Origin: an uncultured Chloroflexia bacterium
GTDB taxonomy: Bacteria > Chloroflexota > Limnocylindria > Limnocylindrales > CSP1-4
Direction of reading: 5' to 3'
Assembly (NCBI GenBank): GCA_963719285.1
Contig: CAVRBO010000004.1
Coordinates: forward strand, 842,064 to 906,063
DNA: 64,000 nt
Below, piece after piece: positions 34,802 through 59,403 of this stretch (position 1 is its first letter; each line of letters begins with the position of its first letter). Position numbers and translations under genes: made by a program. The notes under the pieces were generated by a model. That model had not been told where the DNA came from. It ran no database searches and worked only from the letters and a program-made list of their open reading frames with translations.

Positions 34802-35842
34802 AGCGGCAGCTCGCCTTCGAGGTACGTCTTCCAGGGGCTGAAGCCGAACGGTCCGTAATACCCGAGCAGGGTCGTCCAGTCGATCACGCAGTCGCGCACG
34901 CCGCGCTCATGGAGCGTGTCCAGGGCCACGGCGAGCAGAGCCCGCCCGAGGCCGCGTCCACGCAGTCGCTCGACCACCCCGATCGGCCCCAGGCCTCCGC
35001 TCGCCGGCCTCAGCAGGCCCTCCCAGAAGCGCGGCCCGAAGAGCGCTCCGTCGCCGCGCTGGTGGATGGTGGCGAAGCCCGCGATCCGCTTCGCCGCGAC
35101 CGGAGGGGCCGGCGTGTCGGCGGGCACGAGCAGCAGCACGTCCGAGGGAGCCATGCCGTGGTCCAACGCCCAGCCCAGGTCGTGGACCCAGTCGAGCTTG
35201 AACTGGCGATCCAGGAAGGAGAGGAAACCCTCGCTCTCGCGAGGGTCCAGCGGCCGGACTGTCAGGCCCGCGGCGGCCAGGGCCTCCCGCTCGCGGTCGG
35301 TCGTCGCGGCCCCGTCGAGAGGCGCCCGCAGGTCGTAGGTCTCACCCTCGAACCTGGCGCCCAGGGCGGTGAAGAAGGGCTCGGCTGCGGGCAGGTCGGT
35401 CGGCACGCCCGGGAACAGGTAGTGGATGCCGCCGCCGATCCGGACGCGAGTGATGCCGTCGGCCCGTGCGTCGGCGACGAGCCGGTTGACGATCGCCCGG
35501 CCGATGCCCTCGCGCTGGCGGCCGGGAGTGACCGCGACGACCTGGAGCCAGCCCTCGTGGACCCAGCCCCGCCGCCCCCGGACGAGCCCGCGCGAGCGAC
35601 CCAGGTACCCGAATCCCACGACCGGACCCTGCCGCCTGGGTACACCCGGCTCCGGTTCGCCGAGGTCGGCGGCCGCAACGATGACATCCGACGGCTGGAA
35701 GTCGGGGTTGTCGGTCGTCAGCTGCCGCCACAGCCGTGCGCGAAGCGGGTACAGGTCTCCTGCGCAGGCCTGCCAGAGCGCGACGATCTCGGGATCGTCG
35801 GCCGGGCCGAGCTCCCGGAGGGCGACGCCGTAGACGCTCAAC
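34798..35842 (-). CDS. Tandem GNAT-domain N-acetyltransferase
   Basis: Two acetyl-CoA-binding blocks are present (VAVTPGRQREGIGRAIVN; VVERLRGRGLGRALLAVAL). A TTG start at 35842 is assumed, because the upstream stop at 35852 limits the frame. The start is uncertain. Confidence 0.6.
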
Positions 35843-35851
35843 GGTGCGTCC

Positions 35852-36853
35852 TCACCTGATGCCGCGGACCCGCAGGAAGGACTGCCGGACGACCGCCCAG
35901 GCGGCTGCCGGGTCCTCGCATGCGCAGGTCGACATCGCCGCGCAGCCGTCGTACGACCAGGCGGCGATGTTCCGCGCACCCGCTGCGACCGCTGCGTCGA
36001 CGGCGACACCGATCTCGCCCTCGCGCCCGGCCGGGACACTGAACGCCTGGATCCAGACATGGTGGTCGAGCCCGTGGCGCTGGGCCACCTCGACGGTCGC
36101 CTTCGCATGGCGCCCGACATACTCCGCGGCGTCGCCGCCGAAGCTGAACCAGTACGGATCCGTCCCGAAGTCGTCGAGGCCCGGGATCGAGGCGGCCCGG
36201 TCCCAGTCGCGGAAGCCAGGGTTCGTCGCCTCGGGCGGCATGATGCAGATCGCGTTGCGCATCCCCTTCGACCGCGCATACAGGCTGGCGTCGGCCAGCA
36301 GGTCGTGCATCGTCTGCTCGATGAACGCCTCGACGTCGGGTCCGTAGGCGGTCGGCATCTCGCCACCGTGCCGCTCCCGCCAGAGCGACCGACAGACCTC
36401 ACACCGGCAGCCCCACACCCCGTCCGCGAAGTAGACGGTGGGCTCGTCCCAGAAGACCGTCCGGCCGCCGATGTCCGACGCCCGGTCGATCCACTCGTGG
36501 AGCCAGGTCCGGAACGACGGCTGGTTGAGGCAGGCGATCGTCGTCCGCCCGCCGTCGGAGCGGATCTGGACGGCCTCGGGGTGGAACGCCCCGAACCGGC
36601 TGAACGGCTCGCCACCGAACACCTCGCCGACGCCCCACGGGTCGATCCAGCTGTCCATCCCACGTTCCTGGGTCATCCGCACGACGCGGGCGACCGAGTC
36701 CGGCTGCCAGCGCTGGTCGAACTCGCTGAAGCAGTGGACGACGTACGTCGTGCCGGAGGCGGCCATGTCGTCGAGATCCGCGGCGACGTGTTTCGGGGCT
36801 CGCGTCTCGAAGTACGCGACGCCGGTCTTGATGCCACTCGCCATGATGCTCAA
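35852..36853 (-). CDS. Hypothetical protein, possibly a TIM-barrel sugar-active enzyme
   Basis: The 333 aa product has the features FWDEPTVYFADGVWGCRCEVCR and HHVWIQAF and a balanced composition. The gene overlaps both neighbours by 4 nt. No confident family assignment was possible. Confidence 0.55.
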   Translation of the reverse strand: MSIMASGIKTGVAYFETRAPKHVAADLDDMAASGTTYVVHCFSEFDQRWQPDSVARVVRMTQERGMDSWIDPWGVGEVFGGEPFSRFGAFHPEAVQIRSDGGRTTIACLNQPSFRTWLHEWIDRASDIGGRTVFWDEPTVYFADGVWGCRCEVCRSLWRERHGGEMPTAYGPDVEAFIEQTMHDLLADASLYARSKGMRNAICIMPPEATNPGFRDWDRAASIPGLDDFGTDPYWFSFGGDAAEYVGRHAKATVEVAQRHGLDHHVWIQAFSVPAGREGEIGVAVDAAVAAGARNIAAWSYDGCAAMSTCACEDPAAAWAVVRQSFLRVRGIR

Positions 36854-38256
36854 ACCTCGCGCAGGTAGATGGGGTTGGTCAAGGCAGCGACGTCTCCGTT
36901 GCCGTCGTCGAGCTCGAGGCGGACGAATCGCCGGCCCGCCGATGGGATCCGGAAGGTGGCCCGTGGCGGGCCCGATGCTTCGAGCCCTCGATCGGACAGG
37001 ATGCGGACGGCGAGGCCCGTCGGGTCGCCGTCGAGGTCCGACTCCACCTCGATCGTCTCGTCGCGGCGAACGTCCATGGTCTCACCGGGCACTGCGCGGG
37101 GAAGGCCCCCGATCGAGGGCGCCGGAGCGGTCCCGCGCACGACGAGGCCCGGTCGGGGCGTGTCCGGACGGGCAGTGACCACGACGTGGCCGGCACGGAT
37201 CGCCTCGACGATGCCGTCCCGGTCGCGGGTCGCCGCGTGGACCCAGGTGGTCGGCCCGGCCAGGGGCTGGCCCTTGCGGCGCCGGAACGAATGGCAGTCG
37301 GAGCCGCCGACGGCGGTCGGATGAGCCCCGCCGGCCAGCAGCCCGGCCCACCAGTCGATGGCGCGACGCTCTTCCGACGACCACGGCCCGTTCCAGACCT
37401 CGATCGTGTCCGCCGCGGCGGCGACGGCGTCGCCCAGCTCCCACGGGGACGTGCCGCCGCAGGGGTGATTGACCGACACGAGGCCGCCCTGTCGATGGAC
37501 CTCGTCGAACGAGCGAAGCATGTCGGCCGAGGTTCGGTTCCGGAAGTCCACCCAGCCCGAGAGGCCCCATGCGTTCGAATGGCCGTAGTAGGTGGTGATC
37601 TCCTCGGCCCGGAGCAGCACGAGTCGGCCCCCCTCCGCCGCCAGCTCCGGATGGTGACTGTCCGTGTTGTGGTCCGTCACGGCCAGGAAGTCGAGGCCGA
37701 GATCGGTCGCCTCGGCGACAAGACCCGCCGGACGCTCCGCGCCGTCGCTGTGGACGGTGTGGCAGTGGAGATCGCCCCGCAGCCAGATGGGTGCGGTCCG
37801 TTCCCCCGCGCTGCGATGGGTCGAGGGCTCGGCCCTCGGAGGACGCGCGACCACGTCCACGACCGAGGGCGGCAGGGCGTCGAGCGTCTCGACGGTGAGG
37901 CGGTACGGGGCGCCGAGCTCGGCGACCTGGTAGAGCCCGAGGACGACGTGCCAGGTTCCCGGCGCGATCGGGCCCGGACGGTAGCCGGGCGTCGCCGCGT
38001 CGGCCGCCAGCCACACGTCCGACCGCTCGCTCCCGCTCCAGCCTCGGAATGCCGGCGATCCGAACTCGAGCGGACCCGGACCGAACAGACCCAGGTCGAT
38101 CGTGTTGCCGCCCGTGCGCACGTCCGCGGACATCGCGTCCTCGTAGGTGAAGCCGACATGGAGCGCAGAACGTCCCTGCGGAACGTCGAAGGGGATCGCC
38201 AGATAGTCGGACTGGAGGCGATCGGCGGGCATCACGCGACCGATCAGTTCCGTCAC
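36850..38256 (-). CDS. PHP-domain metallohydrolase (CehA/McbA-like) with an N-terminal beta-rich domain
   Basis: The PHP motifs are WLRGDLHCHTVHSDG, LAVTDHNT, YYGHSNAWG, VNHPCGG and GGSDCHS. Confidence 0.75.
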   Translation of the reverse strand: MTELIGRVMPADRLQSDYLAIPFDVPQGRSALHVGFTYEDAMSADVRTGGNTIDLGLFGPGPLEFGSPAFRGWSGSERSDVWLAADAATPGYRPGPIAPGTWHVVLGLYQVAELGAPYRLTVETLDALPPSVVDVVARPPRAEPSTHRSAGERTAPIWLRGDLHCHTVHSDGAERPAGLVAEATDLGLDFLAVTDHNTDSHHPELAAEGGRLVLLRAEEITTYYGHSNAWGLSGWVDFRNRTSADMLRSFDEVHRQGGLVSVNHPCGGTSPWELGDAVAAAADTIEVWNGPWSSEERRAIDWWAGLLAGGAHPTAVGGSDCHSFRRRKGQPLAGPTTWVHAATRDRDGIVEAIRAGHVVVTARPDTPRPGLVVRGTAPAPSIGGLPRAVPGETMDVRRDETIEVESDLDGDPTGLAVRILSDRGLEASGPPRATFRIPSAGRRFVRLELDDGNGDVAALTNPIYLREV

Positions 38257-38282: not shown

Positions 38283-38759
38283 ATGGAAACGGTCAACGGT
38301 CGACCATCGGACAGGCGTCACACCGGCCGTGGTTCGTCGGTCCGCGACAGTGTGCAAGGGGACGATCGCCCGTCGGCGTGGCAACGGATCGGGCCATTCG
38401 GCCGATTCCTCGTGGGAGCGGTCGTCGCGGCCGGCTTCGCGTTGGCCGGCGTGAAGGCCGTCGAGACGACGCTCGCCCTGACCGTGCGGGTGCCGACGGT
38501 CGAGACACTCCCGGACAGGATCGGGGTCTGCGGCCGAACCTATCATCGGGCGGCCGGTGGGCCGGACGACCTCCTCGGGATCGACGAGTTACGTGCGACC
38601 GGCCCCGAGCCGGTCATCGCGCTGCCGTTGCGGATCCAGCCCTGCATCGACGGGCCATGCAACCGCGGCTTCCCCGGCATCCCCGGATGCGCGACGGTCG
38701 TGTTCGTGCGTATCGAGGGCGACCGCTACGCGGCCTACGATCTCGTGGGCGGCCCCTGA
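38283..38759 (+). CDS. Hypothetical membrane-anchored protein
   Basis: A 158 aa ORF in an otherwise gene-free 590 nt gap. It has one hydrophobic helix (FLVGAVVAAGFALAGV) followed by a Cys-containing region (CGRTY...CIDGPCNRGFPGIPGC). There is no clear ribosome-binding site. Confidence 0.3.
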   Translation: METVNGRPSDRRHTGRGSSVRDSVQGDDRPSAWQRIGPFGRFLVGAVVAAGFALAGVKAVETTLALTVRVPTVETLPDRIGVCGRTYHRAAGGPDDLLGIDELRATGPEPVIALPLRIQPCIDGPCNRGFPGIPGCATVVFVRIEGDRYAAYDLVGGP

Positions 38760-38761
38760 CC

Positions 38762-38777
38762 TGCGCAACCGATTTCG
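38762..38777. promoter_or_regulatory. Candidate LacI-family operator (copy 4)
   Basis: TGCGCAACCGATTTCG lies 70 nt upstream of the Gfo/Idh/MocA start. Its core GCAACCGATTTC matches the reverse complement of the core of the 43357 site at 11 of 12 positions. Confidence 0.35.
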
Positions 38778-38845
38778 CGGGGCGAGGGCGGGTCGACTAC
38801 CATCGCGGCCTGGCGCCCAGCGGAGTGCGCCCATCGGAGGGCCGG

Positions 38846-39871
38846 ATGACGGCGCGGATCGGACTGGCGATCATCGGGGCGGGACGGATGGGCAGCAACC
38901 ACGCCCGGCTCATCGCCGCCGGCGCGCCCGAGCTGCGGATCGTCGCGATCGGCGACGTCGACGGCGATGCCGCCCGTCGCCTGGCCGACGAGATCGCGGC
39001 GACGCCGTTCGCCGATCCACTCAAGGCGATCGCGGCACCGGGGGTCGACGCGGTGCTCATCGCCGTCTCGTCGGTCCACCACCGGGCGATCGTGGAAGCG
39101 GCCGCCGCCGCCGGCCGCGACATCCTGTGCGAGAAGCCCCTGGCGCTCGATCTCCCCGAGACGGACGCGATCCTGGCCGCGGTCGCCCGGGCGGGTGTCC
39201 GCCTGCAGGTCGGCCTGATGCGCCGGCACGACCCGGATCACGTCCGGGCACGCGCCCGGATCGTCGCCGGGGAGCTCGGCCGGCCGCTCCTGTTCAACAG
39301 CCGCCAGTACGACACCGACCCGCCGCCCGCGGCCATCCTGGACCCCCGGATCAGCGGCGGGATCATGCTCGACATGGGGATCCACGAGTTCGATTCGGGG
39401 CGCTTCCTCATGGATTCGGAGGTCGTCGAGGTCCAGGCGACCGGCTCGGTCCAGGTCTACCCGGACGCCGCGACCCACGGCGACGTCGACACGGCCGTGG
39501 TCAACCTGAGATTTGCCTCCGGGGCCATCGGCAGCGTCGAACTCAGCCGGCGGGTCGCCTTCGGCGAGGACGTCCGGACCGAGGTCCACGGCACGGACGG
39601 AAGCGCCTTCATCGGCGGCCTGCCGATCGTCTCGGGCTCCGCGTTCGGTGGTCCGGGGGGTGTCCGCTGGGACCCGACCCCGCCATCGATGCCCCGTTTC
39701 GCGGCGGCCTACACGGACCAGGCGCGCGCCTTCGCCCGGTCGATCCTGGACGACCGGCCGGCGAGTCCGTCGGGGGCGGACGGACGGGCCGCATTCGTCA
39801 TCGCGATGGCCGCCCAGCGTGCGCTCGCGGACGGCGGCACGATCACGGTCGAGGCGCCAGCAGGGCCTTGA
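38846..39871 (+). CDS. Gfo/Idh/MocA family oxidoreductase (inositol 2-dehydrogenase-like)
   Basis: ARIGLAIIGAGRMGSNHARL...ILCEKPLALDL... The start is at MTARIG (38846) with GGAGG upstream. Confidence 0.8.
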   Translation: MTARIGLAIIGAGRMGSNHARLIAAGAPELRIVAIGDVDGDAARRLADEIAATPFADPLKAIAAPGVDAVLIAVSSVHHRAIVEAAAAAGRDILCEKPLALDLPETDAILAAVARAGVRLQVGLMRRHDPDHVRARARIVAGELGRPLLFNSRQYDTDPPPAAILDPRISGGIMLDMGIHEFDSGRFLMDSEVVEVQATGSVQVYPDAATHGDVDTAVVNLRFASGAIGSVELSRRVAFGEDVRTEVHGTDGSAFIGGLPIVSGSAFGGPGGVRWDPTPPSMPRFAAAYTDQARAFARSILDDRPASPSGADGRAAFVIAMAAQRALADGGTITVEAPAGP

Positions 39872-40700
39872 TCCGGTCGAACATGAACCGGGACGACTCC
39901 ACGGCGCGCTCCTCCCAGGCGAAGACGCACGCGGTGAGGATGCCGTCGAAGCCGACGGCGCGGAGCGCGCCGAAGCACGCCTCGAAGTCCACCTCGCCCT
40001 GGCCGATGTCGAGATGCTGGTGGACCCGGGCCGTCGAGCCGGGCGGGTTGACGATGTAGCGGTTGCCGGACGACGCCCGATGGTTGAGCACGTCCGCGAT
40101 GTGGACCTGGGCCAGGACGGGCGCGGCGTAGGCGATCATGGCCGCGATGTCGTCGCCGAGGTAGTACGTGTGCGGCGCACAGAAGACATAGCCCACGCCG
40201 GGCGAGTCGATCCCGCGGACGAGGTCGACCGCATCGGTGTTGCGCTCGATGAAGTCGTCCGGATGGGCCTCCAGGTTGAGCTTGATGCCCTCCTGCTCGA
40301 AGATCGGCAGGAGCTCTTCCATCGAGCGCCAGAACTGGGCCTCGCTCCGGGCCGCCTGCTCCGGCCGCCCGTTGAACTCCGAGTTCATCGTCGTGCAGCC
40401 CACGTCCACGCACAGCTGGATCGCCCGCTTCCAGTAGCGCACGGCGGCCAGGCGTTCGTCCTCGTCGGGGCTCGACCAGCGGTAGAGGGGCAGGATCGAC
40501 GCCATCTCGAGTCCTGAGTCGGTCAGCCCCTTGCGGAACTCGCCGACCTTGGCCCGGTCGGCCCGCGGGTGGGTGAAGAACGGGATGAAGTCCGGCCGGG
40601 GCGACAGCTCGATCGCGTCGTAGCCGATGTCGGCCGCGATCCGGCAGACCTCGCCGAACGGCCGGTCGCGGAGCATGTACGGATCGAGGGCGATCTTCAC
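39843..40700 (-). CDS. Sugar phosphate isomerase/epimerase (xylose-isomerase-like TIM barrel)
   Basis: The 285 aa product, ...YDAIELSPRPDF...NLEAHPDDFIERNTDAVDLV...HIADV, matches the AP-endonuclease-2 / xylose-isomerase-like TIM-barrel family. Confidence 0.8.
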   Translation of the reverse strand: MKIALDPYMLRDRPFGEVCRIAADIGYDAIELSPRPDFIPFFTHPRADRAKVGEFRKGLTDSGLEMASILPLYRWSSPDEDERLAAVRYWKRAIQLCVDVGCTTMNSEFNGRPEQAARSEAQFWRSMEELLPIFEQEGIKLNLEAHPDDFIERNTDAVDLVRGIDSPGVGYVFCAPHTYYLGDDIAAMIAYAAPVLAQVHIADVLNHRASSGNRYIVNPPGSTARVHQHLDIGQGEVDFEACFGALRAVGFDGILTACVFAWEERAVESSRFMFDRIKALLAPRP

Positions 40701-40701
40701 G

Positions 40702-43299
40702 TCAGGGAACCTCCCGTGTCGAAGCGATGCGACCGCGGAGCGTCGTCCCGCTCTCCGCGATCCGTGCCGCCATCCGCGCCCGCAGGGCCGGGTCCGCGAT
40801 CGTCGCGATGGTCTCGAGCCATCGTACGGTCCCGTCGATGACGGCGACGATCGCCTCGGCGTCGGTCCTGGCGAACAGCGGCCGATCGACGACCTCGACG
40901 TACACCGGCGAGGTGTGGGCGGCCATGCTCGTCAGGTACGCGGACCGGATCTCGTGGTCGCTCCGCGCACGGGCGGCGATCCAGGCGCCGGACGTGACGT
41001 CCACGAGGGCGGACAGCGACAGCTCGGTCGTGCCGCCCGGCGCATCCTCGCGCGCCACGACCCGGCCATTCATGACGAGCTCCACGCAACCCACGATGGG
41101 CTGGGCTGCCCGGACCCGGATCCGGACCTCCAGGCGGCCACCGGAGGCGGGCAGGACGACGACGTCGCCGGGCTCGTGGCCGTCGACCAGCAGCTCGATG
41201 ACCGGCCCGGACGTGGCGAACGTGCGGCCGGCCCGGACCGCGGCCGCCCAGGACTCGAACGTGGCGGCGCCATCGGGATCGAGGCGCGCATACGTCCGGA
41301 CCCCGCCGAGCGGCATCTCGGCCGACATCTTGTCGGTCCCGCCCAGGACCGGGACGCGATAGCCGCAGTTCAGGAAGCGGTACCACTCGTTGACCGTGGG
41401 GTTGTCGAGGCCGGGCGCGAACGTCTGCATCTCGATCGCGTCGATCCGGCCGGCGACGATGTCGGCCGCGATCTCCGCGAAGGGCAGCGGGAAGTGGGCG
41501 CCGACGACGAGCCCACCCTCGGCATGGCAGCGATCGGCCCAGTCGGCCAGCAGCTCGGCGATCGGGGCGCCGATCGGGCCCTCCGGCGCGCCGCCCGACG
41601 CCAGGGGCAGGATCGGCCGGCGCGCCCCCAGCAGCCCCAGGTGGCCCAGCACGTTCTGGCGGTTCTCGGTCCCGACCATCACGACGTGGCGACCGCTCGG
41701 GTCCTGTTGCGAGCCGAAGGCGAGGTCCGCGACGCTGGCGAACTCGTCGCCGAGCTGGGTGGCGAGCAGGTGCACGAACGTGATGTCCTCGGCGGCCGCC
41801 TGGAGCAGGGCCGTTGAGGGCGGGATGAAGTGGACGTGCGGGTCGGCCGTGCGCCACCCCGCGGCGCGCAGGTCGATCGAGCGATCCAGCGCGAACGCCA
41901 GCTCGCGGGTGCCCGGTCCGACCGTCACGGTCGTGCGCACCGGCCGGTGGTCGAAGCCCTTCACGACCTCGACCTCGACGGCGCCCACCGGCAGGTCGAT
42001 CTCGAACCGACCGGGGACGTAGGCGTAGGTGTCGGCTCCGAGGACGAGGCCGGCGCCGGAGTCCTCGTAGATCCCCGTATTGACCTCGTCGCGATGGCCG
42101 AGCGGCGGCAGGTACCGCCCGTCCGCGGCGACGAACCGCACCCGTGCCGGGCTCGCCTCGCCGTCCGCGCCGACCCGCACCTCGACCCGGACGCCGGCAG
42201 CCGCCAGGGGTTCGATCCTGACCCGACCGTCCGGACTGGTCGCTCCGGTCGCCAGGTCCGCCGCGGCGACCGTCCAGTCACCGAGCGCGATCCGCGCGTC
42301 CGGCGCCAGCGCGAGATCGACGACACGGCGCGCTGCGACCTCGCCGTCGGCCGCGTCGGCGCTGGGTGTCGGCCGGCCCCAGCCGATCGGCCCCGGCCCG
42401 TCGTGCGGGCATCCGCGCGGCAGGGGCAGCGGCCTCGACCGGATCGCGATGCCCAGGTCGACCTCGGGGAGCTCCGCGCCGGCGCCCGTGACGAGGATCT
42501 GCCGGCGGGGCGCCAGAACGAGCGGGTCCGCCGTGCCGGCGAACAGGGTGACGGCCGCGATGACGATGTCCGTCCCGGGTCGTCCGCCGCCGAGCGGGAT
42601 GACCCGGAGCGTCGCGGGCTCGGCGACCCCGCCGAGGGGGATCGCGTGGAGCCAGTACGTCGCGTCGTCGTCGGGCGTCGGGACGAAGTCGGCCACGCCG
42701 GTCTGGTGCGCGCCCCACGAGCCGGGCAGGACCGTGAGCGCCCCGCCGTGTCCGGCCGGCGCGTACCGACCGGGGGCCTGGCGGCTGTACGGGCCGCGCC
42801 AGTCGAGCGCCTCATCAGAGCGATGGCCGATGGCCGCGAACGGCACGAACCCCCAGCCGATGATGCCGTCCGCGATCTCGAACCGGCGTCGCACGTCCAC
42901 GGTCCGGGTCTCGCCGCCGGCCAGGCTGAACTCGTAGCGCGCGAGAGGCTCGCCCGTGGGGAGGACCCAGCCCACCGGGTTCCCGGGGCTGCGTTCGCCG
43001 GTGGCGTCGCGCCAGCTGTCGGCGAAATGGGCGATCACGATGTGGCTCGCCGGACCGTGGTCCCGCAGGTCGATGGTCAGCTCATCGCCGGCGACGATCC
43101 AGCGGCGTCCTGCCGCCCGGAACCCCAGGTCGAACGGCAGGCCACGGAACACCGAGGGTCCCTCGGGCAGGCGGGCGAGGGCCTGCTCATAGAGCGGATG
43201 GAAGCGCGCGCCGACCTCCGCGTCAGACGCGTTCCAGGCCGTCGAGAGGTCGACGGAGCGGGCCAGGGGAGTGGCTCGACGCGTGCGCCCGGTCGTCAT
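40702..43299 (-). CDS. Large uncharacterised protein (865 aa). The N-terminal region of about 480 aa is unknown; the C-terminal part is a divergent PHP-like module.
   Basis: The C-terminal motifs WRTADPHVHF, VMVGTENRQNVLGHLGLLG, GGLVVGAHFP and GGTDKMS align with the PHP protein at 36850-38256. This protein is a paralog of the one at 55467-58061. Confidence 0.8.
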   Translation of the reverse strand: MTTGRTRRATPLARSVDLSTAWNASDAEVGARFHPLYEQALARLPEGPSVFRGLPFDLGFRAAGRRWIVAGDELTIDLRDHGPASHIVIAHFADSWRDATGERSPGNPVGWVLPTGEPLARYEFSLAGGETRTVDVRRRFEIADGIIGWGFVPFAAIGHRSDEALDWRGPYSRQAPGRYAPAGHGGALTVLPGSWGAHQTGVADFVPTPDDDATYWLHAIPLGGVAEPATLRVIPLGGGRPGTDIVIAAVTLFAGTADPLVLAPRRQILVTGAGAELPEVDLGIAIRSRPLPLPRGCPHDGPGPIGWGRPTPSADAADGEVAARRVVDLALAPDARIALGDWTVAAADLATGATSPDGRVRIEPLAAAGVRVEVRVGADGEASPARVRFVAADGRYLPPLGHRDEVNTGIYEDSGAGLVLGADTYAYVPGRFEIDLPVGAVEVEVVKGFDHRPVRTTVTVGPGTRELAFALDRSIDLRAAGWRTADPHVHFIPPSTALLQAAAEDITFVHLLATQLGDEFASVADLAFGSQQDPSGRHVVMVGTENRQNVLGHLGLLGARRPILPLASGGAPEGPIGAPIAELLADWADRCHAEGGLVVGAHFPLPFAEIAADIVAGRIDAIEMQTFAPGLDNPTVNEWYRFLNCGYRVPVLGGTDKMSAEMPLGGVRTYARLDPDGAATFESWAAAVRAGRTFATSGPVIELLVDGHEPGDVVVLPASGGRLEVRIRVRAAQPIVGCVELVMNGRVVAREDAPGGTTELSLSALVDVTSGAWIAARARSDHEIRSAYLTSMAAHTSPVYVEVVDRPLFARTDAEAIVAVIDGTVRWLETIATIADPALRARMAARIAESGTTLRGRIASTREVP

Positions 43300-43321: not shown

Positions 43322-43372
43322 TATTGACGTGGGGCGAGGCGCGATGATACCTTCCCTGCAATCGGTTGCGCA
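43322..43372. promoter_or_regulatory. Putative promoter plus LacI-family operator (copy 1)
   Basis: TATTGACG is at 43322-43329. The near-palindrome TGCAATCGGTTGCGCA at 43357-43372 matches the LacI-family consensus TGNAANCGNTTNCA in 13 of 14 positions. It sits immediately upstream of the AAGGAG site and ATG of iolD, and is divergent from the large paralog at 43299. Confidence 0.5.
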
Positions 43373-43382: not shown

Positions 43383-45269
43383 ATGGAGACCGTCCGGCTG
43401 ACCGTGGGCCAGGCCATCGTGCGTTTCCTTGCCCAGCAGTATGTCGAGCGGGACGGACGCGAGGGCCGCTTCATCGAGGGCGTCTGGGGCATCTTCGGGC
43501 ACGGCAACGTGGCCGGCCTGGGCCAGGCCCTCGAGGAGCTCGGCGACGCCGAGGCGATGCCGTACTACCGACCCCAGAACGAGCAGGCCCAGGTCCACCT
43601 GGCCGCGGCGTTCGCCCGCCACCACAACCGCCTCCGGGCCTATGCCTGCACGTCGTCGGTGGGACCTGGCGCGATGAACATGGTCACCGGTGCCGCCGGG
43701 GCGACCGTCAACCGCATCCCTGTCCTGCTCCTCCCGAGCGACTACTTCGCCAACCGGGCCCCGGATCCGGTCCTCCAGCAGATCGAGCACCCGACCGAGC
43801 GCGATGCGAGCGCCAACGACGCCTTCCGGCCGGTCTCGCGCTTCTTCGACCGGATCTCGCGGCCGGAGCAGCTCCTCGGCTCCCTGCCGGAGGCGTTCCG
43901 TGTCCTCACCGATCCGGCAGAGACGGGAGCGGTGACGATCTCGCTGCCCGAGGACGTCCAGTCCGAGGCGTTCGACTGGCCGACCCGGTTCTTCGGGAAG
44001 CGCGTCTGGCGGGTCCGGCGCCCGCAGCCGGACGCGGCCGACCTGGCCGCCGCGGCGCGGGTCATCGGCGCGTCCAAGGCCCCGGTCATCGTCGTGGGCG
44101 GCGGCACGATCTACTCCGAGGCGACCGACGAGCTCGCCGCGTTCGCGACCCGCTTCGGCATCCCGGTCGTCGAGACCCAGGCCGGCAAGGGCGCCCTGCC
44201 CTGGAACCATCCGATGAACGCCGGGCCGGCCGGCACGAACGGCGGCCTGGCGGCCAACCGGCTGGCCCGCGACGCGGACGTCGTCATCGGCATCGGGACC
44301 CGGATGGGCGACTTCGTCACCGCCTCGCGCACGACCTTCCAGCATCCCGGCGCGACGTTCGTCGGCATCAACATCGGGTCGATGGACGCCCACAAGTGGC
44401 GGGCGATCCCGGTGGTCGCAGACGCTCGCGAAGCGATCCGGGCGCTCGAGGCGCGGCTCACCGCGGACGGCTACGCCGGCACGGCGGCTCCCTATCGCCG
44501 GCGGATCGCGGACCTCAAGCACGAGTGGGACGGCATCGTCGACGGCCTGCGGGCGATCAACGGCGAGCCGGGCGATCTCGGCCAGGCCGAGGTGATCGGC
44601 CTCGTCAACGACGCGGTGGGCGGCCACGCGACCGTCATCTGCGCCGCCGGCAGCCTGCCCGGCGACCTGCTCCGCCTGTGGCGGCCCGAGGACCCCAAGG
44701 CCTACCACGTGGAGTACGGCTTCTCGTGCATGGGTTACGAGATCGTGGCCGGGCTCGGCGTACGCCTGGCCGACCCCGAGCGCGACGTGGTCGTCATGGT
44801 CGGCGACGGGTCGTATCTCATGCTCAACTCGGAGATCGTGACGGCGGTGGCCGAGGGCCTCAAGTTCACGATCGTCGTCCTCGACAACCATGGCTTCCAG
44901 TGCATCCTCGCGCTGCAGCGCCTGGTAGGCGTGCCCGACTTCGGCAACGAGCTCCGCTTCCGCGACCCGGAGCGCAACCGGCTGACCGGGCCGTACGTGC
45001 CGGTGGACTTCAAGGCCCACGCCGAGGCGATGGGCGCCCTCGCGATCCACGCCTGCACGCCCGATGAGCTGCGCGCCGCGCTCGCCCAGGCGAAGGTCGC
45101 CGACCGGGTCACGGTCATCGTCGTCCCGACCGAGCCCGAGAAGCGGATGCCCGGCTTCGAGTCGTGGTGGGACGTGCCGGTCGCGGGCGCGAGCGGACAG
45201 GCCGGCGTGCGGACCGCCCGGAAGGACTACGACAAGAAGCGCGCCGCCCAGCGCATCGACATCCAGTGA
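43383..45269 (+). CDS. iolD: 3D-(3,5/4)-trihydroxycyclohexane-1,2-dione acylhydrolase (thiamine-diphosphate enzyme, IolD-like)
   Basis: METVRLTVGQAIVRFLAQQYVERDG... is a typical IolD N-terminus, with a TPP-binding GDGSYLMLNSE motif. The start is at 43383 (AAGGAG site); the ATG at 43329 from the ORF track was not used. Confidence 0.85.
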   Translation: METVRLTVGQAIVRFLAQQYVERDGREGRFIEGVWGIFGHGNVAGLGQALEELGDAEAMPYYRPQNEQAQVHLAAAFARHHNRLRAYACTSSVGPGAMNMVTGAAGATVNRIPVLLLPSDYFANRAPDPVLQQIEHPTERDASANDAFRPVSRFFDRISRPEQLLGSLPEAFRVLTDPAETGAVTISLPEDVQSEAFDWPTRFFGKRVWRVRRPQPDAADLAAAARVIGASKAPVIVVGGGTIYSEATDELAAFATRFGIPVVETQAGKGALPWNHPMNAGPAGTNGGLAANRLARDADVVIGIGTRMGDFVTASRTTFQHPGATFVGINIGSMDAHKWRAIPVVADAREAIRALEARLTADGYAGTAAPYRRRIADLKHEWDGIVDGLRAINGEPGDLGQAEVIGLVNDAVGGHATVICAAGSLPGDLLRLWRPEDPKAYHVEYGFSCMGYEIVAGLGVRLADPERDVVVMVGDGSYLMLNSEIVTAVAEGLKFTIVVLDNHGFQCILALQRLVGVPDFGNELRFRDPERNRLTGPYVPVDFKAHAEAMGALAIHACTPDELRAALAQAKVADRVTVIVVPTEPEKRMPGFESWWDVPVAGASGQAGVRTARKDYDKKRAAQRIDIQ

Positions 45270-45328
45270 CCCACCCACACGCCCCGAGCCTGCCCGGGCC
45301 GGGCGCGTCCGCTTAGCGAGGAGACAGC

Positions 45329-46567
45329 ATGCCCGGACCCGGGATCGAGCTCGTCGGCGCCGAAGAGACGGCCGAGGTGATGGAGGTGCTCCAGAGCGGC
45401 TACCTGAGCCGCTACGGCCCATCCGACGACCCCCGGTTCAAGGCCAAGGTCCACCACGTCGAAGAGGCGATCGCGAAGCTGACCGGGGTCAACCACGCCC
45501 TCGCCCTCCATGGCGGTGGATCGGCGGCGTTGTGGATCACCCTGCTCAGCCTGGGCATCGGAGCGGGCGACGAGGTCATCGTGCCCGGGTTCACCTACGT
45601 CGCCTCCATCTCGGCGATCGTGTACACCGGCGCGACGCCGGTCCTGGCGGAGATCGACCAGACGTTCGACCTGGACCCGGCCGACGTCGAGGCGAAGATC
45701 ACGCCCCGCACGGCGGCGATCCTCGTCGTCCACATGTTGGGTGGGGTGGCCCGGATCGAGGAGCTCAAGGCGATCGCCGACAAGCACGGGATCGCCCTCA
45801 TCGAGGATTGCGCCCAGGCATTCGGAGCGTCGTACAAGGGCCGCAGCGTCGGCTCATTCGGCATCGCCGGCACGTACAGCTTCAACGAGTACAAGACGAT
45901 CACCTGCGGCGACGGGGGGATGATCGTGACCGACGACGCCGGCCTGTACGAGCGCGCCTTCGCCATGCACGACCAGGGCCATGCCCCGGACCGGCTCGAG
46001 TCGAAGTACGCGCCGCGGCCCTTCCTTGGCATGAACTTCCGGATGACCGAGTTGTCCGGTGCCGTTCTCGGCGCGCAGGTCAGGAAGCTCGACACCATCG
46101 TGTCGCACCTGCGGGCCAACAAGGCGATCGTCAAGGACATGCTCGAAGAGGTCCCGATGATCGACTTCCGGACCTTGACCGACCCCGCGGGCGACCTCGC
46201 CACCCACCTCGTCGTCGTGCTTCCGACCGCGGAGATGGCCGACAAGGTGGTGGCGGAGGTCGGCTCGAGGACCCTCGGCGAGTCGGGCTGGCACACCTAC
46301 AGCCGGATGAACCACCTGCTCGACAAGCGGACGATCAACGGCAAGGGCTGCCCGTTCGATTGTGGCGACCCCAGCCACGCCCACGGCGAGTACCGCGCCG
46401 GCATGCTCCCCCAGACCGACGCGCTTCTCGATCGCTCGCTGAGCATCGGCATCGGGGTCAAGGATGCGAACCTGGCGCCGTTCGGCCTCCGGATGCGCGA
46501 CGGGGCGGCCGAGGCCCGGCAGGTCGGGGCCACGTTCCGGGACGCCGTGATCAAGCACCGGGCGTGA
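45329..46567 (+). CDS. DegT/DnrJ/EryC1/StrS-family PLP aminotransferase (scyllo-inosose / sugar aminotransferase-like)
   Basis: ...EVMEVLQSGYLSRYG...ALALHGGGSAALWITL...HMLGGVARIEELKAIADKHGIALIEDCAQAFGASYKGRSVGSFGIAGTYSFNEYKTITCGDGGM is a DegT-family fold. A GAGGAG ribosome-binding site is present. Confidence 0.85.
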   Translation: MPGPGIELVGAEETAEVMEVLQSGYLSRYGPSDDPRFKAKVHHVEEAIAKLTGVNHALALHGGGSAALWITLLSLGIGAGDEVIVPGFTYVASISAIVYTGATPVLAEIDQTFDLDPADVEAKITPRTAAILVVHMLGGVARIEELKAIADKHGIALIEDCAQAFGASYKGRSVGSFGIAGTYSFNEYKTITCGDGGMIVTDDAGLYERAFAMHDQGHAPDRLESKYAPRPFLGMNFRMTELSGAVLGAQVRKLDTIVSHLRANKAIVKDMLEEVPMIDFRTLTDPAGDLATHLVVVLPTAEMADKVVAEVGSRTLGESGWHTYSRMNHLLDKRTINGKGCPFDCGDPSHAHGEYRAGMLPQTDALLDRSLSIGIGVKDANLAPFGLRMRDGAAEARQVGATFRDAVIKHRA

Positions 46568-46583
46568 TCGCGAGGGGTCGTCG

Positions 46584-47582
46584 GTGATCGAGGCGGTCGT
46601 CGTCGGTCGGGTCGGCGTCGATCTCACCCCAGCGACGCCCCGAACGACGCTGGCCGCCGCGGACGGCTTCGTCCGGGCCGTCGGCGGGTTCGCCGGCAAC
46701 ATCGCCACGGGCCTCGCCCGGCTCGGGGTGTCCAGCGCGGTCGTCTCGGCCGTCGGCGACGACGGGCACGGCGACCACGTGCGTGCCTTCCTCGCGGGGG
46801 AGGGGATCGATGTCGGGGCGCTCGTCACCCGGGCGGGGTCGCGGACCCAGGTGGCGTTCTTCGAGGTCTGGCCGCCGGAACGCTTCCCGGTGACGTTCTA
46901 CCGGCCCGCCCCGGCACCCGAGACGCGACTGACGGTCGCCGACCTGCCCGTGGCGCTCCTGGACGAGGCGCCGCTGGTGATCGTCTCCGGCACGCTCCTG
47001 GCCACCGAACCGGCCCGCTCCGCGACGATGAGCCTCCTCGAGGTGCGACTGGCGTCGCGCTCCCGGCGGCCACCGTCCACCACGATCCTGGACCTGGACT
47101 GGCGCCCCACCCTGTGGGCTGACCCGGCCCAGGCGCCCGCGCTCATGGCCAGAGCGGCGGGACTGTCCGACATCCTCATCGGGAGCGACGCGGAGTTCGC
47201 GGCGACGGGCCTGGATCCGGCGATCGGCCGCGATGCGCATCCCGCGCTCATCGTGCTCAAGCACGGCGCGGATGGCGTCTCGCTCGTGACGCCGGGTGGT
47301 CGTCGGACCCTGGCCGGCCTCCCGATCGACGTCCTGTGCGGGATCGGGGCCGGCGACGCACTCAGCGCGGCCTTCGCCGCGGGCCTGCTCCGCGGCCTGG
47401 ACCCGGCGACGGCGCTGGAACGTGGCAATGCCGCCGGGGCGATCGTCGCCTCGCGCCTGATGTGCAGCACGGCCATGCCGACACCGGCCGACATCGACGC
47501 GCTGCTGGCCGCCCGGTCGAGCGTGCCTCGCCCGCGCGGCCCCGACAACCGACAGAGCCGTCCGCAGGAGGCCCGTCCATGA
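46584..47582 (+). CDS. iolC: PfkB-family carbohydrate kinase (5-dehydro-2-deoxygluconokinase-like)
   Basis: GRVGVDLTP...FVRAVGGFAGNIATGLARLG...GAGDALSAAFAAGLL is ribokinase/PfkB-like. Its position between the aminotransferase and iolB supports the call. Confidence 0.7.
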   Translation: MIEAVVVGRVGVDLTPATPRTTLAAADGFVRAVGGFAGNIATGLARLGVSSAVVSAVGDDGHGDHVRAFLAGEGIDVGALVTRAGSRTQVAFFEVWPPERFPVTFYRPAPAPETRLTVADLPVALLDEAPLVIVSGTLLATEPARSATMSLLEVRLASRSRRPPSTTILDLDWRPTLWADPAQAPALMARAAGLSDILIGSDAEFAATGLDPAIGRDAHPALIVLKHGADGVSLVTPGGRRTLAGLPIDVLCGIGAGDALSAAFAAGLLRGLDPATALERGNAAGAIVASRLMCSTAMPTPADIDALLAARSSVPRPRGPDNRQSRPQEARP

Positions 47583-48505
47583 CGAACGCAGGCGCCCCCC
47601 GGGAGCCGGTCATCCACCCGGCGAAGCTCCCGATGACCCGCGATGTCGCCTCCCTGCACATCCATCCCGATGGCACGGGCGCCGTCGCGACCGACCCCGC
47701 CCGGTCGGGCTGGCGGTATCTCTCGTTCCGCGCGTTCGGGCTCGCCGACGGCGAGGTCGTGGAGCTCGACCGGCCCGAGCAGGAGGCCGCGATCGTCACG
47801 ATCTCGGGCGGCGGCGTGGAGGTCGCGCCCGAGCGCGGCCCGGCGCTGGCGCTGCCCGGCCGGACCACGGTCTTCGCGGGGATGCCCTGGAGCGCGTATA
47901 TCCCGGCCGGGACCCGGACCCGGATCGTCGGCCGGCCGCTCCCCGGGCAGCGGGCCGTCGTGGCGGTCGCCCAGGCCCCGGGAACGGGTCGGGGCGGAGT
48001 GGCCCCCGAGCCGATCCTCGTGCGACCGGACGAGGTGGAGATCGAGATCCGGGGCGCCGGCAACGCCACCCGCCAGATCAACAACATCATGATGCCGGGC
48101 TTCCCCGCCGACCGGCTGCTCATCTGCGAGGTCTTCACCCCGAACGGCAACTGGTCGGGCTGGCCGCCCCACAAGCACGACGTGGACGACCCGCCACGCG
48201 AAGCGGTCCTCGAAGAGACGTACTACTACCAGATCAGCCGGCCCGAGGGCTGGGCGATCCAGCGCGTCTACCACCGCGATGGATCGCGGGACCTGGTCCT
48301 GCCGGTCCGCCATGGCGACCTGCTGAGCGTCGACCAGGGTTACCACCCGTTCGCCTCGACCCAGGGCTACGACGCCTACTACCTGAACGCACTGGCCGGC
48401 GACCGGCGGACGATGGCCAACACGGACGATCCGGACCTCGCCTGGGTCCGCACGCTGTGGCCGTCGATGGTGCCGGATCCCCGCCTGCCGCTCGTGCACA
48501 CGTGA
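47579..48505 (+). CDS. iolB: 5-deoxy-glucuronate isomerase
   Basis: ...SGWRYLSFRAFGLADGE...TPNGNWSGWPPHKHDVDDPPREAVLEETYYYQ... is the IolB family. It overlaps the upstream stop (ATGA). Confidence 0.8.
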   Translation: MTNAGAPREPVIHPAKLPMTRDVASLHIHPDGTGAVATDPARSGWRYLSFRAFGLADGEVVELDRPEQEAAIVTISGGGVEVAPERGPALALPGRTTVFAGMPWSAYIPAGTRTRIVGRPLPGQRAVVAVAQAPGTGRGGVAPEPILVRPDEVEIEIRGAGNATRQINNIMMPGFPADRLLICEVFTPNGNWSGWPPHKHDVDDPPREAVLEETYYYQISRPEGWAIQRVYHRDGSRDLVLPVRHGDLLSVDQGYHPFASTQGYDAYYLNALAGDRRTMANTDDPDLAWVRTLWPSMVPDPRLPLVHT

Positions 48506-49434
48506 CGGTCGAGGAGCGCCGCCTGCGGTTGCTCCGACTGGCCGGCGATCGGGGCATCGTGGCCGGCATCGCGCTCGATCATCGCGACAGCCTCCGATCC
48601 ATCCTCGAGCGGCGGGGCCTGGTCGGCCTCACGGACGCCGCGATGCGCTCCCTCAAGGTCCGGCTGGCCCGGGCGCTCGCCCCGGCGGCCACGGCGATCA
48701 TGCTGGACGAGGAATTCGGCGGCGAAGCGCTCGATGCGGGCGTGGTGCCGGCGTCAGTCGGCCTGATCATGCCCCTCGAGGCGCAGGGCTACGAGATGGT
48801 CGAGGACGGTCGGACGACCACCCTGCTCGCCGACTTCTCGCCCGACCATGCCCGCCGGCGCGGCGCCGACGCCTGCAAGCTGCTCCTGCCGTACCGGGTC
48901 GACCACGAGCCCTCGGCGATCCGCCAGGACGCCCTCGTGGAGGCGGCGGCGCGGACGTGCCACGAGGCCGGGCTGCCGCTGGTCGTGGAGCCCGTCGTGT
49001 ACCGCTGGTCCACCGAGCCGGCCGCCACCTACGCCGGTGCGTACGGACGCCTCGCGATCGAGGCCGTCGCGCGCATCCGGGCACTCGGACCGGACCTGCT
49101 CAAGCTGCCGTTCCCCGTACTCGGCCTGGCCACCGACGGCGAGGCGGCGGCGCTCGAAGCCTGCCGGGCGCTGGACACGGCGTGCGCGGGCACGCCCTGG
49201 GTCCTCCTCGGCGCGGGCGCAGATACCGCCACCTTCATCGACCAGATCCGCATCGCCGGTACGGCCGGGGCGTCCGGGTTCCTCGCCGGTCGCGGGATCT
49301 GGGCCGCCGCCCTGGGGCGGGATCCGGACGAGGTGGAGCGGGTGGCGCTGGCCGTCTGCCGCCCGGACTTCGAGCGCTGCCGGGCGATGGCCGAACGGGT
49401 CGCCCGTCCCATCGAGGCACCGGCGAGCGGCTGA
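48502..49434 (+). CDS. Class I aldolase (tagatose-1,6-bisphosphate aldolase / LacD-DeoC-like); candidate 6-phospho-5-dehydro-2-deoxy-D-gluconate aldolase
   Basis: IALDHRDSLRSI...DACKLLLPYRVDH...LPLVVEPVVY...DLLKLPFPV. A GTG start overlaps the iolB stop (GTGA). Confidence 0.65.
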   Translation: MTVEERRLRLLRLAGDRGIVAGIALDHRDSLRSILERRGLVGLTDAAMRSLKVRLARALAPAATAIMLDEEFGGEALDAGVVPASVGLIMPLEAQGYEMVEDGRTTTLLADFSPDHARRRGADACKLLLPYRVDHEPSAIRQDALVEAAARTCHEAGLPLVVEPVVYRWSTEPAATYAGAYGRLAIEAVARIRALGPDLLKLPFPVLGLATDGEAAALEACRALDTACAGTPWVLLGAGADTATFIDQIRIAGTAGASGFLAGRGIWAAALGRDPDEVERVALAVCRPDFERCRAMAERVARPIEAPASG

Positions 49435-49489
49435 CGCCGGCGTCACCGCCCCACCGCCGAACGTTCGTCCCGACCCCCAGGAGTCAACG

Positions 49490-53542: not shown

Positions 53543-53573
53543 CCACCAGGCCAGGGCTGATCGAGGAGATCGG

Positions 53574-59366: not shown

Positions 59367-59403
59367 TCGACCGTCACGTGGACGATGCAAGGAGGAGCGT
59401 GGA

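Follow-up and report, generated by a model that had tools for sequence, protein, structure and literature searches.

Two paralogous proteins of the CehA/McbA branch of the PHP superfamily at the edges of an operator-marked iol-type gene cluster in an uncultured Limnocylindrales bacterium

Most characterised PHP enzymes are phosphoesterases, and the ligands of a third metal serve the classical PHP phosphoesterases, such as YcdX and those with histidinol-phosphatase-type sites. The NCBIfam model NF038032 (CehA_McbA_metalo) is named after the carbaryl/carbofuran hydrolases McbA (Pseudomonas sp. C5pp and XWY-1) and CehA (Rhizobium sp. AC100 and Sphingobium). For the 850-890 aa architecture that is described below, we know of no protein with a known enzyme activity. 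The bond cleaved by McbA and CehA is a carbamate ester, and His467, His477 and His504 of McbA were reported to be crucial for the hydrolysis (PMC8292978).

The window analysed here, a stretch of 64,000 nucleotides from an uncultured bacterium of the order Limnocylindrales, encodes two proteins of this architecture, paralog A (40702-43299, minus strand, 865 aa) and paralog B (55467-58061, minus strand, 864 aa). ORF calling and translation located both genes exactly where the original prediction had placed them. The two had also been expected to be full-length paralogs with more than 50% identity, and BLASTP gave 58% (498 identical residues of 862, E = 0) over the full length. Their GC3 values, 0.89 and 0.94, are as expected for coding sequence at the window GC content of 72%. 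Paralog A is composed of five parts, namely a jelly-roll, a transthyretin-like sandwich, a PHP barrel, a C-terminal sandwich and a helical hairpin (AlphaFold2 model, pLDDT 79.8, pTM 0.76), and B has the same architecture. The 37 orthologs of clade A (mean identity 69%) are separate from the 10 orthologs of clade B (mean identity 73%), and the presence of many orthologs in each clade rules out a recent duplication or an assembly artefact. The clades date the duplication that gave A and B to before the species radiation, which makes the two old paralogs. On reading the N-termini of A and B, no evident signal peptide was seen; the absence of a leader from both rules out a secreted enzyme, and the two proteins are probably cytoplasmic.

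Residues 481-802 of A (40894-41859, minus strand) form the catalytic module, a CehA/McbA-type PHP barrel with a C-terminal sandwich. NF038032 matched this segment with 148.6 bits (E 2.7e-43) and residues 481-801 of B (nt 55659-56621) with 154.5 bits, in both cases along model positions 1-315 of 315 and with a curated cutoff of 80. Pfam searches with A and B returned no family at E<=1, and Pfam PHP (PF02811) was undetected. The module has the distorted (beta/alpha)7 barrel fold of the PHP superfamily, and the barrel is the best-conserved part of the protein (mean 0.78 in 151 sequences). Residues 427-840 of A were aligned with McbA by BLASTP over 432 columns (25% identity, E 1e-21), and similarity to CehA was detected by tblastn (E 2e-7). 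These matches lie far above chance and agree with the proposal of a homology between the C-terminal half and the CehA/McbA branch; no characterised family with a known substrate took in the whole protein. The same proposal had called the PHP module cryptic, which was not borne out, as the NF038032 scores come close to double the cutoff and databases already list homologs under the name 'CehA/McbA family metallohydrolase'. The family of A and B is real, but its members are variants of an enzyme type that is already known, distantly related to McbA and CehA.

The barrel carries the HxH metal-binding motif H488-V-H490 (41830-41838, minus strand), and E545, H553, H602 and D656 would be the other ligands of A according to the alignments. 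Thus, the alpha/beta ligand set of the PHP superfamily (HxH, a bridging Glu, two His and Asp) is present in A and B. Each of D486, H488, H490, E545, H553, H602 and D656 is found in at least 148 (148-150) of the 151 family members, and about 30 more barrel residues are invariant across the 151 sequences, at identities down to about 30%. H553 and H602 align with His467 and His504 of McbA, and McbA His477 aligns with a non-His position in A. That the canonical metal site is partly lost, and that Pfam PHP is blind to A and B, might be taken to mean that they are catalytically dead scaffolds or regulators which keep the fold alone, but the invariance of the six ligands and the additional barrel residues among such divergent sequences, in the most conserved part of the protein, makes this highly improbable.

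Two of the classical motifs are changed in A, which reads H488-V-H490-F-I-P-P-S where the canonical sequence is HCHTVHSDG, and GGTD656-K657-M658-S where it is GGSDCHS, so that D656-K657-M658 (41326-41334, minus strand) stands in place of the classical D-x-H. The loss of SDG and the replacement of the last His by K-M had been noticed beforehand, and our survey of homologs showed that they hold throughout the family, with K657 in 148 and M658 in 146 of the 151 members. Relatives from Bradyrhizobium and Mesorhizobium also have D-K-M, which is a signature of the family. In the alignment, the third-metal ligand positions of A are occupied by S495 (+5 after HxH), by 'ADL' for 'TDH', and by M658 for the His of DxH; all three classical third-metal ligands are thus seen to be absent from the A/B family. 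The predicted alteration of the metal site is therefore real in A and B, although it is not special to them, because McbA (GSDYPY, HIHIGRS), CehA (ETDYPC) and eight other examined members are also without SDG and the DxH His.

These positions bear on whether A and B could be phosphoesterases that dephosphorylate an imported or internal phosphorylated cyclitol before the iol pathway, for which an inositol phosphate, an inosamine phosphate or a glycerophosphoinositol-type compound would be candidates. The barrel fold resembles that of phosphoesterases and nucleases (2anu, 3e38, RNase AM and EndoQ), the conserved cationic residues R547, K657, R668 and R777 would suit an anionic group, and the binding protein of the cluster has weak similarity to PhnS2. 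However, the third-metal ligands are all absent, nothing in the cluster by way of kinase or phosphatase logic calls for this step, and McbA and CehA, the only relatives with this set of ligands to have been characterised, act on a carbamate ester (PMC8292978). We consider a phosphoesterase activity to be unlikely, while giving it appreciable weight.

Another conserved position is H795 (40915-40917, minus strand), in the 'AAHTSPVYV' strand, an invariant His which is specific to McbA/CehA-type members. It is kept in 150 of the 151 family members, and an equivalent His was found in nine of ten members without the DxH His. H795, together with M658, could rebuild a third metal site.

The window also contains a suitable comparator, a canonical CehA/McbA and PHP protein of 468 aa (36850-38256, minus strand), whose gene lies in a separate operon with uncharacterised, GNAT and SIS genes. 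This protein scored 206 bits with NF038032 and 27.1 bits with Pfam PHP. It shares the NCBIfam domain and collinear motifs with A and B, and the original motif-by-motif pairing was reproduced exactly by hhalign using the family profile, with a weak score (E 0.018). Since the pairwise BLASTP comparison with A was not significant (E 1.6), the homology is shown through the NCBIfam profile and McbA. The 468 aa protein keeps the full classical set (HCHTVHSDG, TDH and GGSDCHS), which A and B do not, and it has Leu at the position of H795 and a shorter, different N-terminus. By its motifs, this neighbour is the unusual, classical-looking one among the CehA/McbA members examined. Because it is encoded only 3 kb away in the same genome, the locus offers a natural comparison of a putative two-metal with a three-metal PHP site.

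The N-terminal region of A consists of a jelly-roll beta-sandwich without a sequence family (residues 1-300; 42400-43299, minus strand) and a transthyretin/carboxypeptidase-regulatory-like beta-sandwich which is partly common to McbA (residues 324-478; 41866-42330, minus strand). The jelly-roll is interrupted by a conserved Gly/Pro/Trp-rich insertion (residues 138-212; 42664-42888, minus strand), which was modelled with low confidence (pLDDT 28-58 in the AlphaFold2 model) and has a mean conservation of 0.72 in the 151 sequences, compared with 0.65 and 0.59 in the flanking fold. Residues 1-480 matched no Pfam family, NCBIfam family or PDB sequence; PDB sequence searches with the single sequence and with a 57-sequence profile gave nothing meaningful, and a Foldseek search of the N-terminal fold against PDB gave no significant match. 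The original view that an N-terminus of about 480 aa is unassignable stands in that no sequence family was found, but the homology with McbA begins at residue 427, within the second beta-sandwich, and full-length rhizobial relatives can be aligned from residue 114 of A. By these alignments, the truly unassigned stretch is only about 380 to 425 aa. We reject an occurrence of the N-terminal domain in other architectures, as the full-length matches among 482 representatives were all of 820-1020 aa and of the same build. The shorter matches among these representatives look like contig fragments.

The N-terminus of A has a possible similarity, at the level of fold only (18% identity), to AziU2 of the AziU3/U2 aziridine synthase (PDB 7wuw_A), an enzyme which eliminates sulfate; it may not exceed that among jelly-rolls in general. 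This raises the idea of a non-hydrolytic reaction on a cyclitol (elimination, isomerisation or ring chemistry) with the participation of an AziU2-like N-terminal domain. We regard it as improbable, since neither Foldseek nor a profile-to-PDB search recovered AziU2 or gave a sequence-profile signal for it, the conserved metal ligands are of the hydrolase type, and no AziU3-like partner was seen in the cluster. AziU2, which acts in antibiotic biosynthesis, is a free-standing subunit of about 200 aa, and the 75-residue conserved insertion is specific to the A/B family. A more speculative proposal treats A and B as a distinct enzyme class, in which the third-site His would have moved to H795 of the C-terminal sandwich, K657-M658 would reshape the pocket, and the conserved, disordered insertion of an AziU2-like domain would serve as a lid, all of which would make up a new active site, with the two paralogs removing two different N-substituents in an as yet undescribed catabolic route for N-substituted aminocyclitols. 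To this we assign a small chance. Example substrates in that case would be carbamoyl-, amidino- and acyl-inosamines from aminoglycoside-type or rhizopine-type compounds.

As the original prediction held, A and B lie at the edges of an operator-marked cluster, which is made up of iol-type gene families. Directly downstream of A, and probably in the same operon, is a gene for an AP_endonuc_2 protein (xylose-isomerase-like TIM barrel; 39843-40700, minus strand, Pfam E 2e-50). Between A and B are two plus-strand operons. The first (43384-50347) encodes IolD (TIGR04377, 890 bits, cutoff 715), a DegT aminotransferase (Pfam E 1e-80), IolC (IolC_N, 257 bits, under the cutoff of 300), IolB (TIGR04378, 263 bits, cutoff 205), a DeoC/LacD-type aldolase and an AP_endonuc_2 protein, and the second (50588-55453) encodes a LacI regulator (50588-51643), a split transketolase, an IolG-like dehydrogenase (TIGR04380, 336 bits, slightly below the cutoff of 355) and a second IolB. 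No match to the IolE equivalog was found in the cluster. Beyond B, an ABC importer (an ATPase, a PotD/PhnS-like binding protein with a TAT signal and two permeases) and, after it, an F420-type LLM oxidoreductase are encoded at 58281-63461 on the plus strand. The binding protein shows weak similarity both to PotD and to PhnS2, a binding protein for 2-aminoethylphosphonate. The DegT protein is closest to KdnA (8-amino-Kdo transaminase, E 2e-82) and not to inosose aminotransferases, so that 'inosamine' is not established.

The LacI-type operator GCAAWCGGTTGC, the operator sequence of the LacI-family protein also being written TGCAATCGGTTGCA, occurs at four sites in the window compared with 0.27 expected, and none of 100 shuffles reached four. 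Two of the sites are in the divergent intergenic regions adjoining A and B: one core lies in the 84 bp between A and iolD (43358-43369, plus strand), and the other between B and the ABC transporter genes (58129-58140, plus strand), just after a promoter-like site, TTGACG-17-TAGCAT. A third core is upstream of the lacI-family regulator gene (50383-50394, plus strand), and the fourth, operator-like site, with one mismatch, is upstream of a GFO/IDH/MocA dehydrogenase gene (38762-39871; site 38765-38776, minus strand). The operators sit just downstream of plus-strand promoter elements, and it is clear that they act on the divergent operons. From their position, they may also control A and B themselves; a sigma-70 consensus scan found no minus-strand promoter for A or B. 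In 55 of 63 related loci, an operator is present 60-135 bp upstream of the hydrolase gene.

The gene linkage is conserved as well. Of 74 related loci, 57 have DegT, 56 LacI and 49 IolD; the ABC importer is present at 37 and the AP_endonuc_2 gene downstream at 36. AP_endonuc_2 adjoins the A-type gene in 36 loci, the importer is a neighbour of B-type genes and of clade C genes in 30-37 loci, and independent gene calls showed the same synteny. The more divergent clade C keeps the importer, LacI, DegT, MocA dehydrogenases, AP_endonuc_2 and an IolD-like TPP enzyme, and its lower pathway differs. The nearest relatives of A are in Limnocylindrales MAGs, with identities up to 75% (GTDB species) and 92% in a JGI metagenome. 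In total, more than 800 proteins of 850-890 aa from Chloroflexota, rhizobia, Burkholderiales and Trueperaceae belong to the family, all annotated only generically. Some of them come from genera that can be cultivated (Bradyrhizobium, Mesorhizobium, Ensifer, Variovorax and Paraburkholderia), and cultured-strain orthologs include Bradyrhizobium WP_247360271 and the proteins of Paraburkholderia phenoliruptrix and Variovorax ureilyticus. Distant members occur in contexts without iol genes. Among five such contexts, an aminotransferase gene is adjacent in Paraburkholderia and Trueperaceae and within 10 kb in Mesorhizobium, and four are beside or near transporter genes, of which none was seen at the Trueperaceae locus.

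Our best reading is that A and B are two-metal hydrolases of a C-N or C-O bond, which would release a cyclitol-like compound with an amine group into the iol pathway. In its full form, as cytoplasmic two-metal hydrolases of the CehA/McbA branch within a LacI regulon that act on an amine-bearing cyclitol-like or sugar-like conjugate, this proposal is tentative, and we hold it with slightly less than even confidence. The PotD-like ABC system would import the conjugate, and A or B would strip one substituent from it. The barrel would hold the alpha/beta two-metal site (H488, H490, bridging E545, H553, H602 and D656), a metal count which we infer from the alignments. As to the metal itself, NicO and CbiX neighbours suggest Ni or Co. 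By analogy with McbA and CehA, a metal-activated water would most likely attack a carbonyl-type bond (amide, carbamate or ester). The DegT aminotransferase and the MocA/IolG dehydrogenases may then turn the freed amine into a ketone, and the carbon would enter the route of IolE-like protein, IolD, IolB, IolC and aldolase; this order of steps, like the bond type and the substrate, is read from the family and the gene neighbourhood. A and B probably take two related substrates or two positions of one substrate.

Within the regulon, the inositol pathway is linked with an aminotransferase and an importer of the amine type, and this combination points to conjugated amino-cyclitols or similar compounds as the natural substrate class, whose breakdown has not been described so far. 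More than 800 proteins of this architecture carry merely the name of a pesticide-hydrolase family. In soil Chloroflexota, the gene is always found within a cluster for the breakdown of inositol and amino-sugar-type compounds, and in Limnocylindrales, an abundant uncultured lineage of soil and freshwater, the hydrolase gene is a fixed part of the regulon. The family may also indicate the ancestry of the pesticide hydrolases McbA and CehA.

In comparison with known systems, McbA and CehA, which are also large (769 and 794 aa), share with A and B part of the preceding beta-sandwich, the PHP barrel and the C-terminal sandwich, the same ligands (HxH, E, H, H and D) without SDG and without His after the Asp, and the 'HT(S/Y)P' histidine near the C-terminus. 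The common NCBIfam domain and the significant pairwise similarity might then suggest that A and B are their functional equivalents, xenobiotic carbamate hydrolases of the carbaryl/carbofuran type. The likelihood of this seems very slight, as the identity is about 25% and limited to the C-terminal 440 aa, and the N-terminal 330-425 aa or so of McbA and CehA have no detectable similarity to residues 1-425 of A. McbA and CehA start with hydrophobic or RR leaders for export, which A and B do not have; they have D-Y-P where A and B have D-K-M, and they lack the family-specific N546-R547 and K657-M658. They are plasmid- and transposon-borne, whereas A and B belong to a conserved chromosomal catabolic regulon of uncultured Limnocylindrales and not to a transposon-flanked plasmid island. 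Classical PHP proteins (YcdX, histidinol-phosphate phosphatase, TrpH/RNase AM, TM0559, Pol III alpha and PolX) match PF02811, unlike A and B, which are without the third-metal ligands and carry three additional beta-sandwich domains as well as a helical hairpin. In the literature searched, we found nothing relevant on inositol metabolism in Limnocylindria, or on clusters for inositol, inosamine or rhizopine that include a hydrolase of the PHP or CehA type. With bacterial myo-inositol (iol) and rhizopine (moc) clusters, the A/B cluster has in common IolD, IolB, IolC-like and IolG-like proteins, an aldolase, AP_endonuc_2 (IolE/MocC-like) and GFO/IDH/MocA proteins, with one repressor and an ABC importer. 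It differs from them in its PHP-fold hydrolases, which are not reported for such clusters, and in that a KdnA-like DegT gene is inside the iolD-iolC operon and that the binding protein is PotD-like and not of the sugar type.

The ORFs at 40702-43299 (minus strand; A, 865 aa) and 55467-58061 (minus strand; B, 864 aa) have third-position GC of 0.89 and 0.94, respectively, typical of real genes in this window, whose GC is 72%. Since A and B are identical at 498 of 862 positions (58%) across their whole length (BLASTP, E = 0), their paralogy, for which over 50% identity had been estimated by eye, is not in doubt. A PHP module had been predicted in their C-terminal halves; no Pfam family matched A or B, whereas NCBIfam model NF038032 ('CehA/McbA family metallohydrolase'; 315 positions, curated cutoff 80 bits) was spanned entirely by both matches (A, residues 481-802, 148.6 bits, E 2.7e-43; B, residues 481-801, 154.5 bits). 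The canonical CehA/McbA neighbour of 468 aa (36850-38256, minus strand) scored 206 bits with this model and matched Pfam PHP, and it had PDB sequence matches to PHP phosphoesterases. BLASTP of A against this neighbour was not significant, and a profile-to-sequence comparison was weak, yet returned exactly the motif pairs of the original prediction. A is also similar to the carbaryl hydrolases McbA (Pseudomonas sp. XWY-1; 25% identity, residues 427-840, E 1e-21) and CehA (E 2e-7). The homology of the PHP module thus rests on the profile and on direct similarity to characterised enzymes rather than on the pairing with the 468 aa ORF, and by sequence the catalytic domain of A and B is a member of the named CehA/McbA family.

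In YcdX-type and histidinol-phosphatase-type structures, the classical PHP site binds metal one through HxH, Glu and Asp, metal two through Glu and two His, and a third metal through an Asp/His five to six residues past HxH and the histidines of 'TDH' and DxH. A and B align Ser495, 'ADL' and Met658 with the third-site positions, and with all three replaced a two-metal site would be the simplest inference. Across an alignment of 151 full-length family members, whose N-terminal halves are as little as about 30% identical, at least 145 sequences keep each of D486, H488, H490, E545, N546, R547, H553, H602 and D656, as well as E609, D620, E623, T655, R668, R777, H795 and S797. K657 is found in 148 members and M658 in 146, showing that the K-M substitution is conserved among homologs. 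His467 and His504 of McbA, which align with H553 and H602, are crucial for hydrolysis according to a review (PMC8292978). The loss of SDG and of the DxH histidine is real, but it is not peculiar to A and B: both features are missing from 10 of 11 aligned CehA/McbA-family proteins (A, B, two homologs from rhizobia, McbA, CehA, the 468 aa ORF and one protein each from Gemmatirosa, Croceicoccus, Sphingomonas and Nonomuraea). A C-terminal 'HT(S)P' strand provides a His, H795 in A, in nine of these 10, and the sole classical member, the 468 aa ORF, has Leu there, suggesting that a metal ligand may have moved to this C-terminal His.

The N-terminal part, originally described as assignable to no family, matched nothing in Pfam, NCBIfam or PDB by sequence or profile. 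A structure model divides it into two domains, a predicted jelly-roll sandwich (A residues 1-300, minus strand) and a second sandwich partly common to McbA, whose alignment begins at residue 427. The jelly-roll domain holds a Gly/Pro/Trp-rich insertion of 75 residues (A residues 138-212; 42664-42888, minus strand). Its AlphaFold pLDDT was 28-58 in both runs and its conservation 0.72, versus 0.65 and 0.59 in the surrounding fold; it could plausibly serve as a lid or an interface. The barrel has two further loops (residues 516-528 and 564-577) that are likewise conserved but modelled with low confidence. Residues 1-470 queried against 1.84 billion representatives gave 482 relatives, of which the full-length ones are all 820-1020 aa with the same build.

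Clustering of the family sequences gave an A clade (n = 37), a B clade (n = 10) and a clade C (n = 21), the last about 51% identical to A and to B alike. Seven positions, four of them in the barrel, cleanly distinguish the A clade from the B clade, and the occurrence of A and B on the same contigs (for example, related loci L003 with L038 and L034 with L055) argues that the duplication is old. Close relatives (49-92% identity) come nearly all from Chloroflexota MAGs, mainly Candidatus Limnocylindrales or 'uncultured Chloroflexia'; a single close-family MAG is labelled Verrucomicrobiia. In the latter, a 6.9 kb contig (L004, DATLVO010000105.1) carries a homolog at 72% identity with the same set of downstream genes, and the label is likely a binning error, not gene transfer. 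The full architecture is also found in more remote members (35% identity from residue 114; D-K-M and HTS kept), which come from Bradyrhizobium, Mesorhizobium, Ensifer, Variovorax, Paraburkholderia, Inquilinus, Thermomicrobiales and Trueperaceae. At E<=1e-20 the family holds at least 848 proteins, without exception named generically or 'hypothetical'.

Iol-type blocks and operators lie next to both A and B, in agreement with the LacI-operator-marked cyclitol-catabolic cluster originally proposed. An AP_endonuc_2 gene (39843-40700) comes next after A, and the divergent operon encodes IolD (890 bits with TIGR04377, whose cutoff is 715), a DegT aminotransferase (45329-46567, plus strand, between iolD and iolC), IolC, IolB, an aldolase and another AP_endonuc_2 protein. 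A LacI block comprises the regulator, the two halves of a split transketolase, an IolG-like gene and another copy of iolB, and B is divergent from the genes of an ABC importer, whose binding protein is PotD/PhnS-like, and of an F420-type LLM oxidoreductase. In 74 related loci searched with the proteins of the window, the hydrolase was accompanied by DegT in 57, making this the most constant partner of the family, by LacI in 56, IolD in 49, the importer in 37 and the downstream AP_endonuc_2 gene in 36; the synteny was also seen in independent gene calls. Clade C loci retain the importer, LacI, DegT, MocA-type dehydrogenases, a TPP enzyme resembling IolD and an AP_endonuc_2 gene, and add an SDR, an HpcH aldolase and a lactonase. 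NCBIfam detected no IolE equivalog in the cluster, and the AP_endonuc_2 proteins (49433-50347 and 39843-40700) reached no NCBIfam equivalog (best scores about 30 bits), although IolD depends on the IolE product; one of the two presumably acts as a divergent inosose dehydratase.

The split transketolase (51630-53542, plus strand; one gene for the N-terminal half, one for the pyrimidine-binding/C-terminal half) lies between the LacI regulator and the IolG-like dehydrogenase and recurs in 15-19 related loci; it is not known to have a part in the textbook iol pathway. The F420-dependent luciferase-like (LLM) oxidoreductase (62430-63461, plus strand) follows the importer, a place kept in 27 related loci. 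A separate operon (34070-38256, minus strand) encodes the 468 aa classical PHP-type protein, a 333 aa protein with no Pfam match, a two-domain GNAT acetyltransferase and a SIS-domain protein, and the latter three recur beside the iol cluster in one related locus (L027). A 158 aa ORF (region 38283-38776), also with no Pfam match, is conserved at 67% in L027 and terminates just ahead of an operator-like site and a MocA-type dehydrogenase gene; a frame change at about 38760 in the frame plot indicates two genes, not one.

The window contains four occurrences of the core operator GCAAWCGGTTGC (38765, 43358, 50383 and 58129), where 0.27 would be expected, and three of them directly follow TTGACG-type promoter elements that belong to plus-strand operons. 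Of 63 related loci, 55 carry the motif 60-135 bp ahead of the hydrolase gene; several of the remaining eight have the gene at other coordinates, which makes this fraction an underestimate. A simple consensus scan recognised no minus-strand promoter for A or B, and it is from the shared intergenic regions (84 bp and about 220 bp) that we infer their co-regulation. At 58097-58280 (plus strand), a promoter-like TTGACG-17-TAGCAT and the operator are separated from the ABC ATPase ORF by about 150 nt; this stretch contains a 12-codon ORF starting at 58154 and may be a long leader.

The constant companions of the hydrolase (amine-type importer, aminotransferase, dehydrogenases and ring-opening TPP enzyme) suggest that the pathway substrate would be an amine-bearing conjugate, cyclitol-like or sugar-like, and that A and B would perform an early deconjugation step. 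A carbonyl-type bond is favoured over a phosphoester as the point of attack, both by the arrangement of ligands, which is that of McbA and CehA, and by the lack of a third metal. We regard phosphoesterase activity of A and B as unlikely; non-hydrolytic chemistry appears more improbable still. Early deconjugation by a carbonyl-type-bond hydrolase is put forward tentatively, as a mechanism that could well apply. The specific 'inosamine' idea is weakened by the undetected IolE equivalog and by the DegT protein, which is far closer to KdnA, the 8-amino-3,8-dideoxy-octulosonate (8-amino-Kdo) transaminase (best PDB match, 5k8b, E 2e-82), than to inosose aminotransferases, including 2-deoxy-scyllo-inosose aminotransferases (E 1e-43 or worse). 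Among five distant contexts, an aminotransferase is adjacent in Paraburkholderia and Trueperaceae and within 10 kb in Mesorhizobium, which fits amine release. The adjacent ones, in Paraburkholderia phenoliruptrix and Trueperaceae, are class-V enzymes. A NicO nickel/cobalt transporter gene (locus L079, 11747-12874) adjoins the P. phenoliruptrix member and a CbiX-like gene (locus L080, 12286-12561) lies two genes downstream of the Trueperaceae member, which hints at Ni or Co as the metal of the hydrolase.

We found no paper on the architecture of the N-terminal part, on the K-M signature, on the probable cytoplasmic location or on the fixed place in an iol/aminotransferase regulon, and these appear to be undescribed. 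The family is a good candidate for enzyme discovery, with no categorical surprise: its catalytic domain belongs to a family already named, and the altered metal site of A and B is already embodied in the carbaryl hydrolases McbA and CehA.
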